NCBI RefSeq assembly: GCF_055900595.2
Contig: NZ_CM148325.1
DNA length: 64,000 nucleotides
Direction: 5' to 3' (one strand)
Position numbers and translations under genes: made by a program
In this document: in pieces, positions 52,397 to 55,063 of the stretch
How positions within the stretch are numbered: position 1 is the stretch's first letter
Layout: every line of letters begins with the position of its first letter
Notes under the pieces: generated by a model
The model's database searches: none
The model's input: the letters and a program-made list of their open reading frames with translations, nothing else
What the model was told of the DNA's origin: nothing

Positions 52397-52436
52397 ATCC
52401 ATCGCTGATGGTGGAGAACTTTAGTACCCGATAAAA

Positions 52437-52467
52437 GCGGCTTCCTGACAGGAGGCCGTTTTGTTTT
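52437..52467 (+). terminator. rho-independent terminator of dps
   Basis: stem GCGGCTTCCTG/CAGGAGGCCG followed by TTTTGTTTT. Confidence 0.75.
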
Positions 52468-52626
52468 GCAGCCCACCTCAACGCACTTATTTAGTGCATC
52501 CATCTGCTATCTCCAGCTGATTAAGTAAATTTTTTGTATCCACATCATCACACAATCGTTACATAAAGATTGTTTTTTCATCAGGTTTTACGCTAAATAA
52601 TCACTGTGTTGAGTGCACAATTTTAG

Positions 52627-52729: not shown

Positions 52730-52745
52730 TGGCACGATTTTTTCA
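52730..52745 (+). promoter_or_regulatory. sigma54 promoter glnHp2 (-24/-12)
   Basis: TGGCACGATTTTTTCA, about 55 bp upstream of glnH ATG, downstream of the NtrC sites. Confidence 0.7.
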
Positions 52746-52784
52746 TATATGTGAATGTCACGCAGGGGATCGTCCCGTGGATAG

Positions 52785-53546
<762 letters not shown>

Positions 53547-53560
53547 TAATGCTACGCCTG

Positions 53561-53630
53561 TAAAGCGCACTGGCAGTTCCCTCTCCCCTCTGGGGAGAGG
53601 ATTAGGGTGAGGGGCGCAAACCCGCTCCGG
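53561..53630. repeat. GC-rich intergenic repeat (BoxC-like) between glnH and glnP
   Basis: CCCTCTCCCCTCTGGGGAGAGG...AGGGTGAGGGGCGCAAACCCGCTCCGGGGCC, self-complementary; resembles E. coli BoxC from memory. Confidence 0.5.
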
Positions 53631-53684
53631 GGCCATTAATTACCCTGAATTTGATTATTTACACCACGGTAACAGGAACAACAT

Positions 53685-54344
53685 ATGCAGTTTGACTGGA
53701 GTGCCATCTGGCCTGCCATTCCGCTTCTGATTGAAGGTGCCAAAATGACCCTGTGGATTTCGGTCCTCGGTCTAGCTGGCGGCCTGGTGATCGGATTGCT
53801 GGCAGGTTTTGCACGCACCTTCGGTGGTTGGATATCCAACCACGTCGCGCTGGTCTTTATTGAAGTGATCCGCGGCACACCTATCGTCGTCCAGGTGATG
53901 TTTATCTACTTCGCCCTGCCGATGGCGTTTAACGACTTACGCATCGACCCATTTACTGCGGCGGTGGTCACCATCATGATCAACTCCGGCGCATACATTG
54001 CGGAAATCACGCGTGGTGCGGTGCTGTCTATCCACAAAGGTTTCCGTGAAGCAGGACTGGCTCTCGGCCTTTCACGTTGGGAAACCATTCGCTACGTCAT
54101 TTTACCGCTGGCACTGCGCCGTATGCTGCCGCCGCTGGGTAACCAGTGGATCATCAGCATTAAAGATACCTCGCTGTTTATTGTTATCGGCGTGGCGGAA
54201 CTGACCCGTCAGGGGCAAGAAATTATTGCCGGTAACTTCCGCGCCCTTGAGATCTGGAGCGCCGTGGCGGTGTTCTATCTGATTATTACCCTGGTGCTGA
54301 GCTTTATTCTGCGTCGTCTGGAAAGAAGGATGAAAATCCTGTGA
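53685..54344 (+). CDS. glnP: glutamine ABC transporter permease GlnP
   Basis: 219 aa permease. Confidence 0.94.
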
Positions 54345-55063
54345 TTGAATTTAAAAACGTCTCCAAGCATTTTGGTCCAACCCAGGTGCTGCACAATATC
54401 GATTTGAACATTGCCCAGGGCGAAGTCGTGGTGATTATCGGGCCGTCCGGTTCCGGTAAATCGACCCTGCTGCGCTGCATCAACAAACTGGAAGAAATCA
54501 CCTCCGGCGATCTGATTGTCGATGGCCTGAAGGTTAACGATCCGAAAGTTGACGAGCGCCTGATTCGCCAGGAAGCGGGTATGGTGTTCCAGCAGTTTTA
54601 CCTCTTCCCGCATCTGACGGCGCTGGAAAACGTGATGTTTGGTCCACTACGCGTGCGTGGCGCGAACAAAGAAGAGGCGGAAAAACTGGCGCGTGAGCTG
54701 CTGGCGAAAGTCGGTCTGGCAGAACGTGCACATCACTACCCTTCCGAACTTTCTGGTGGTCAACAGCAGCGTGTGGCGATCGCCCGCGCGCTGGCGGTGA
54801 AGCCGAAAATGATGCTGTTTGATGAACCGACTTCCGCTCTTGACCCGGAACTGCGCCATGAAGTGCTGAAGGTTATGCAGGATCTGGCTGAAGAAGGGAT
54901 GACGATGGTGATCGTGACACACGAAATCGGTTTTGCCGAGAAAGTCGCTTCGCGCCTGATCTTTATCGACAAAGGCCGGATTGCGGAAGATGGCGATCCG
55001 CAGGTGTTGATCAAGAACCCACCGAGCCAGCGCTTGCAGGAATTTTTGCAGCACGTCTCTTAA
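54341..55063 (+). CDS. glnQ: glutamine ABC transporter ATP-binding protein GlnQ
   Basis: 240 aa; Walker [18 protein letters not shown]; start overlaps glnP stop. Confidence 0.95.

Follow-up and report, generated by a model that had tools for sequence, protein, structure and literature searches.

REP/BIME elements are said to be mRNA stabilisers (Newbury et al. 1987 and Stern et al. 1984, as cited by Dar and Sorek 2018), and stabilisers of this kind lie between binding-protein and membrane-component genes in malE-malF and hisJ-hisQ. Stable stem-loops of E. coli that lack a U-tract have been described to block PNPase and RNase II, with steady-state RNA 3′ ends located immediately downstream of them (Dar and Sorek 2018, PMC6061677). 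A further family of dispersed palindromes in E. coli, known since the 1990s, was first named BoxC, then PIT ("potential intrastrand triplex"; Hoyne/Maher 2000) and then TMECO (Holder et al. 2015, PMC4666352). Its members are always intergenic, are quoted in the literature as 56 bp long and as numbering 23 to 32 copies in K-12, and consist of a pyrimidine block CCCTC(T/G)CCC(C), a purine block GGGGAGAGGG and a G-rich block GGGTGAGGG(G), separated by short loops of which the second reads TTA or CCG. According to the triplex model, pairing takes place between the pyrimidine and purine blocks, and the G-rich block on the 3′ side occupies the groove as a third strand (PMC4666352). In vitro, CD and NMR showed triplexes of great stability for TMECO oligonucleotides (Tm 70-82 °C), and these oligonucleotides stop a polymerase during primer extension; in vivo DMS footprinting left the triplex undetected, and purine-motif triplexes do not form in RNA (PMC4666352). 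PIT elements have neither terminator nor promoter activity in the summary of Holder et al., and neither these authors nor the Maher laboratory found a general regulatory role for the family (PMC4666352). Rearrangement is more frequent at TMECO loci, and deletion or alteration of the listed BoxC loci is common, with 1 to 24 copies among strains (Holder et al., PMC4666352).

The window studied here, the whole stretch of 64,000 nt that was analysed, is E. coli DNA and carries dps, glnH, a 138-nt spacer, glnP, glnQ and ybiO on the + strand, in agreement with the MG1655 annotation. The upstream cistron glnH (52800-53546) encodes the periplasmic glutamine-binding protein, and is separated by the spacer (53547-53684) from the downstream cistron glnP (53685-54344), which is followed by glnQ (54341-55063); these limits were taken from the open reading frames, and the genes from the K-12 annotation. 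A first-pass annotation, made from the letters alone, had placed a GC-rich self-complementary repeat resembling BoxC at 53561-53630, within the glnHPQ operon. The sequence is as it described, the coordinates bracket the element well, and open reading frames and K-12 annotation agree on the position in the operon.

By the limits of the family profile, the full BoxC element covers 53562-53621 on the + strand, and it contains a three-block core of 36 nt at 53579-53614 (CCCTCTCCCC-TCT-GGGGAGAGG-A-TTA-GGGTGAGGGG), which resembles TMECO type A when compared with Table 1 of Holder et al. The pyrimidine block CCTCTCCCC (53580-53588) and the purine block GGGGAGAGG (53592-53600) were recognised by the repeat finder as a perfect 9-bp inverted repeat with a 3-nt loop, forming the 5′ and 3′ arms of a hairpin, and the G-rich block GGGTGAGGGG, the third strand in the family model, lies 3′ of this repeat at 53605-53614, all on the + strand. 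RNA folding, one of the checks proposed by the first-pass annotation, bore out a stable hairpin of about -18.3 to -18.6 kcal/mol for either strand, and the Watson-Crick prediction for the DNA hairpin was about -9.7 kcal/mol. A lone 9-bp palindrome is only weakly unlikely, as simple arithmetic gives ~0.24 expected per 64 kb, while the composite motif occurred once in the window and in none of 100 dinucleotide shuffles. Motif and profile searches both returned this element as the only BoxC copy in the 64-kb window.

Judged by its sequence, the glnH-glnP palindrome is a slightly degenerate BoxC copy (PIT/TMECO), an identity which follows from the profile match, the dispersed copies and the match to the published TMECO/BoxC sequences, and which bears out the resemblance noted in the first-pass annotation. 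A profile HMM was built from 15 other K-12 BoxC copies, taken from the MG1655 list of Holder et al. 2015 and excluding the glnH-glnP copy, and matched 53562-53621 on the + strand with 45.4 bits (nhmmer, E=2e-13), showing that the similarity reaches beyond the core to the ~56 bp element of the family. An 80-nt query matched 66,754 places, distributed over 5425 of the 5426 complete E. coli genomes with a median of 12 and at most 26 in any one genome, and the element is therefore a dispersed repeat; a search for further copies was among the checks proposed by the first-pass annotation. All three blocks of the family pattern are present, and when the core is tested against the TMECO pattern as CCCTCTCCCC-TCT-GGGGAGAGGA-TTA-GGGTGAGGGG, there is one deviation and 9/10 pairs and triads remain. 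The first-pass annotation had named BoxC correctly, and had not recognised AGGGTGAGGGG as the third strand of an intrastrand-triplex motif.

The family consensus extends ~19 nt upstream of the core as AAAGCGCACnnnCAGTC, where the glnH-glnP copy reads AAAGCGCACTGGCAGTT, and flank comparison showed the 5′ flank AAAGCGCACnnnCAGT to be common to this copy and the family. The 3′ flank did not match the family consensus of the 15 K-12 copies. With single-flank BLAST across the E. coli genomes, the 5′ flank is single-copy and the 3′ flank (53613-53656) is found at a median of 2 places per genome. The family likeness of the flanks is visible only by profile and alignment. The copy is absent from both the 23-copy MG1655 TMECO table and the flanking-gene table of Holder et al. 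(PMC4666352), as expected for a degenerate member that is missed by the strict pattern of the published list; in MG1655 the copy has the loop TAT. A scan of the region against Rfam gave best overlapping matches of 15-18 bits with E above 1 (Antizyme_FSE and whalefall-1), which is chance level. In Table 1 of Holder et al., the MG1655 copies 8, 10 and 12 have a loop-closing T-A pair (CCCT...AGGG) together with a third block ending in T (..GGGT), the three-way co-variation from C-G*G to T-A*T that triplex formation would demand; each of these copies is the type B partner in a palindromic pair, and the co-variation may go back to one inherited event.

A possible second small hairpin, GGGGCG/CGCTCC at 53611-53629 on the + strand, overlaps the end of the BoxC core, and is weakly indicated by the fold and by the spacer of a divergent lineage (L005, labelled E. 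coli E69), where its counterpart GGGGCA/TGCTCC shows one compensatory G-C to A-T change. Among 5431 matching E. coli records, 5316 show at least 99% identity over the 3′ flank with this hairpin. Its interpretation as a relic of an ancestral terminator-like CAGGGGCG...CGCCCCTG hairpin was rejected on phylogeny, as the nearer Escherichia have a REP-like spacer without such a hairpin.

The hairpin coincides with an RNA 3′ end in vivo. Term-seq of MG1655 by Adams et al. 2021 (PMC7815308) reported an abundant 3′ end at 847,200(-), classed as "orphan", with 30,332 reads in LB at OD 0.4 and 130,459 reads in LB at OD 2.0 (Supplementary file 1), and this position is entered three times in a file of three condition sheets. 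The sequence column of that file gives the end nucleotide together with the 50 nt before it and the 10 nt after it, a layout which we checked by coordinates (847,190 is the last G of the core, and the entry for the dps terminator is consistent). The column layout and the coordinates place the end at the final A of GGGGAGAGG-AUUA, 4 nt beyond the stem and equivalent to position 53604 on the + strand of the window, and the third block at 53605-53614 is downstream of the mapped end and outside the stable RNA. Two more BoxC copies with a perfect stem have Term-seq ends 3-4 nt past the hairpin, at 3,781,065(+) and 3,959,467(-), the former being located behind lldD in the opposite orientation. Weaker hairpins were considered as the reason why BoxC copies with a G.A mismatch ("mm") lack Term-seq ends, an idea that was dropped since the predicted RNA energies are similar; the mismatched copies reach these energies via alternative pairing with the third block.

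Two other Term-seq ends of Adams et al. 2021 lie in the neighbourhood. One, at MG1655 848,057(-) (window position 52747; 47,250 reads in LB at OD 2.0), directly follows TGGCACGATTTTTTCAT (52730-52747), a sequence 53 nt upstream of the glnH ATG which resembles a sigma-54 (-24/-12) promoter for that gene; the end may reflect a roadblock or RNA processing there. The other, a strong end at 848,340(-), coincides with the dps terminator hairpin (52434-52469), an ordinary intrinsic terminator that gave an Rfam match to ctRNA_p42d of 26.9 bits, below the gathering score of 50.

The simplest reading of the end at 847,200(-) is that the BoxC hairpin would serve as an exonuclease stop for glnH transcripts. 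On transcription of glnHPQ, the first and second blocks are predicted to fold into a 9-bp G/C hairpin of ~-18 kcal/mol, located 34 nt past the glnH stop codon. Where transcripts are cleaved or end beyond this point, as might happen in the AU-rich stretch before glnP or once GlnZ has guided the decay of glnPQ, they would then be trimmed from 3′ to 5′ until exonucleases stall at the BoxC hairpin. What remains would be a stable mRNA of glnH alone with its 3′ end 4 nt beyond the stem, and such a message would favour more binding protein than permease and ATPase. The hairpin thus probably caps and protects the glnH message, and on balance we favour the view that the BoxC RNA hairpin sets and shields the 3′ end of a transcript carrying glnH alone, in the manner of a REP element, favouring GlnH over GlnPQ. 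The first-pass annotation had suggested that a stable hairpin could protect glnH mRNA; the Term-seq end 4 nt past the hairpin, and a strong hairpin in every orthologous spacer (see below), lend it partial support, and on this reading the hairpin would cause the end, acting as an exonuclease barrier with an effect on GlnH relative to GlnPQ.

The glnP locus was gathered from 80 Enterobacteriaceae species, of which 76 gave readable glnH-glnP spacers (77 with that of the window). A hairpin of -12.6 kcal/mol or stronger was present in 77/77 spacers, with a mean of -20.4 versus -9.2 kcal/mol for shuffles, and these hairpins are non-homologous, being terminator-like, REP-like or BoxC. Among the 77 spacers, BoxC occupies the site only in E. 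coli and in the divergent L005, whose glnPQ is ~95% identical and whose BoxC copy is nearer to the family consensus (GGGTTA, CAGTC); the E. coli copy has drifted from it (GGG to GGA, and CAGTC to CAGTT). REP-like hairpins (GCCCGG...CCGGGC) take the place of BoxC in E. albertii, E. whittamii and L002, and REP-like hairpins are also found in the spacers of Citrobacter, Salmonella, Enterobacter and Klebsiella, some with T-runs. In E. albertii, E. whittamii, Citrobacter and Enterobacter the form is GCCCGG...CCGGGC(CTAC); the E. coli spacer lacks the REP consensus (GCC(G/T)GATG...CTAC type), and its likeness to REP is one of function only. A short CAGGGGCG-loop-CGCCCCTG hairpin with a T-run behind it, the shape of an intrinsic terminator, is found in Kosakonia, Buttiauxella, Cedecea, Atlantibacter and others. 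With glnPQ only ~94.5% identical to the window and the REP-like hairpin in place of BoxC, L002 (NZ_JAATUR010000020.1, labelled E. coli SCPM-O-B-8794) probably represents a cryptic Escherichia lineage.

Alignment of the Escherichia spacers showed that a REP-like segment of ~53 nt in the sister lineages is replaced in the E. coli lineage by a specific segment of ~97 nt (53554-53650, + strand) which holds the BoxC element, with no obvious target duplication. The glnPQ identities are compatible with a single acquisition of BoxC in the common ancestor of E. coli and L005. Outside the repeat, the 3′ third of the spacer (53661-53684, + strand) is a conserved block in the 77-species column comparison, with CACGGT in 72/77 and ACAGGA in 73/77 spacers, and contains the glnP Shine-Dalgarno sequence AGGA (53674-53677). 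The glnH-glnP site accepts several repeat families. The spacer of Serratia sp. H1w (L079) is 232 nt long with an ERIC-like insert containing AAGTGACTGGGGTGAGTCAGCG, and that of Intestinirhabdus alba (L029) is 466 nt long with a large structured insert. Within E. coli, strain B2.3 (L094 2790-3030, NZ_CM185023.1) has its glnH side replaced by foreign DNA ending in the IS21-family element ISEc10, with the junction inside the BoxC 5′ arm, and the remainder reads ...CCCCGCCGGGGAGAGGATTAGGGTGAAGGG.

This variety also bears on the rival view that BoxC is a neutral or selfish element which drift or hitch-hiking fixed in a permissive untranslated spacer, its RNA 3′ end being incidental and of no meaningful effect, a view that we regard as unlikely but worth serious attention. 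Given the REP-like, ERIC-like and larger inserts in other species, the spacer may simply be a permissive landing site; BoxC is absent here from the sister lineages E. albertii, E. whittamii and L002, the family is dispersed without functional pattern (Holder et al., PMC4666352), and the E. coli copy has drifted from a consensus that L005 keeps. Against neutrality, 5400/5426 E. coli genomes keep the 438-nt glnH-spacer-glnP segment collinear with ≥95% identity, making the copy near-universal, whereas loss or change is frequent at other BoxC loci. Furthermore, the two complete E. coli alleles have unchanged stem arms and differ in the loop (TCT vs TAT), and the IS-truncated B2.3 allele has an unchanged 3′ arm with the loop GCC. 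Every orthologue keeps a strong hairpin, and the old hairpin was replaced and not simply lost.

The sharp and abundant 3′ end could alternatively mark a true attenuator. RNA polymerase would then stop at the hairpin or directly behind it, through weak intrinsic or Rho/NusG-dependent termination, and glnPQ transcription would be lowered directly. An equivalent hairpin followed by a T-run in many genera (for example CAGGGGCGGCTTTCGCCCCTG then CTATTTTTGA) would fit this explanation, and Term-seq does not separate termination from processing. In E. coli, however, there is no U/T-tract after the hairpin, where the sequence reads AUUAGGGUGA / ATTAGGGTGA, and the terminator scan gave no + strand site at the element. 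No Rho termination region (BCM-sensitive) is listed in the spacer, at 8471xx or 8472xx (PMC7815308), and the PIT elements are without terminator activity (PMC4666352), all of which makes attenuation improbable. A canonical intrinsic terminator is likewise unsupported, as the hairpin is present without a U/T-rich tract and the scan was negative, and so is an internal glnP promoter, as the sigma-70 scan of the region found no promoter.

We give very little credence to action at the DNA level by an intrastrand purine-motif triplex (H-DNA-like) on the non-template strand, which would impede polymerases or promote rearrangement: although the three blocks are present with the G-rich strand as the non-template strand of glnHPQ, and although the stability and polymerase stop of TMECO oligonucleotides in vitro and the increased rearrangement at TMECO loci (Holder et al., PMC4666352) would suit it, the DMS footprint in vivo was negative, no effect on RNA polymerase, promoters or terminators was reported (PMC4666352), this locus is exceptionally stable (5400/5426 genomes), a terminal triad is lost through the GGA change, the RNA ends before the third block, purine-motif triplexes do not form in RNA, and the BoxC copy in opposite orientation also has an end just past its hairpin, which points to the palindrome and not to the triplex.

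Protection of glnH mRNA by the BoxC hairpin can be set beside what is described for the small RNA GlnZ, which represses glnP through an experimentally verified pairing site just upstream of the glnP Shine-Dalgarno sequence, as stated in Walling 2022 and Miyakoshi 2022. A pulse of GlnZ in Salmonella lowered glnP and glnQ more than 4-fold, and the passages on this pulse do not name glnH among the downregulated genes (Walling 2022/Miyakoshi 2022). These data agree with an independent survival of the upstream cistron, which a hairpin 3′ of glnH would protect. A broader proposal, to which we lend slightly less than even confidence, is that BoxC, previously seen as without function or as a motif of DNA-triplex instability, acts like REP in vivo as a protective, 3′-end-defining hairpin, and that selection keeps a stem-loop with a required function after glnH while its sequence is swapped between non-homologous kinds (from terminator-like to REP to BoxC), which in E. 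coli, together with GlnZ-dependent decay of glnPQ, would uncouple the binding protein from the permease.

BoxC is an element of known kind, and since the family was described in the 1990s, the discovery value of its recognition at this locus is small. Nothing specific was found in the literature on a glnHPQ intercistronic hairpin, and the coincidence of BoxC hairpins with strong in vivo 3′ ends, as well as the replacement of hairpins at glnH-glnP, appear to be unstated in the literature examined. The result ties a repeat without an assigned function to an already measured phenotype, the strong 3′ end inside glnHPQ, and concerns a copy whose fixation in practically all E. coli sets it apart from the "unstable" BoxC loci described earlier. 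The replacement of one unrelated hairpin element by another at a single place across Enterobacteriaceae offers a clean natural system in which to examine a possible co-option of extragenic repeats as mRNA stabilisers, which would then set the stoichiometry of ABC-transporter subunits.

Compared with the BoxC/PIT/TMECO family, the glnH-glnP element has the same three blocks, loop lengths, TTA second loop (type A) and 5′ flank, and is likewise intergenic, multi-copy and about 56-60 nt long. It differs from TMECO type A by a single base, with GGA-TTA for GGG-TTA, and therefore one terminal pair and triad are lost; in addition its 3′ flank is off the family consensus. The triplex of the family was demonstrated with consensus oligonucleotides, from which this variant departs by that base. 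Unlike most listed BoxC copies it sits within an operon, a position occupied among them only by TMECO 19 (pstA-pstB), and unlike the listed copies it is far more stable among strains. An intrinsic terminator or attenuator also has a GC-rich stem-loop after a coding sequence, from which the E. coli element differs in being without a T-run. With the protective stem-loops of Dar and Sorek it shares a GC-rich hairpin without a U-tract and a 3′ end a few nt downstream; those stem-loops belong to Rho-dependent or processed transcripts, whereas this end lies inside an operon with no Rho-dependent region called nearby. From the REP/BIME stabilisers it differs by the lack of sequence similarity and by its extra G-rich third block. 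As a repeated extragenic palindrome after a periplasmic-binding-protein gene, forming a U-less hairpin with a 3′ end just downstream, it nevertheless resembles them in arrangement, and by this analogy BoxC would have a stabilising role at glnH.
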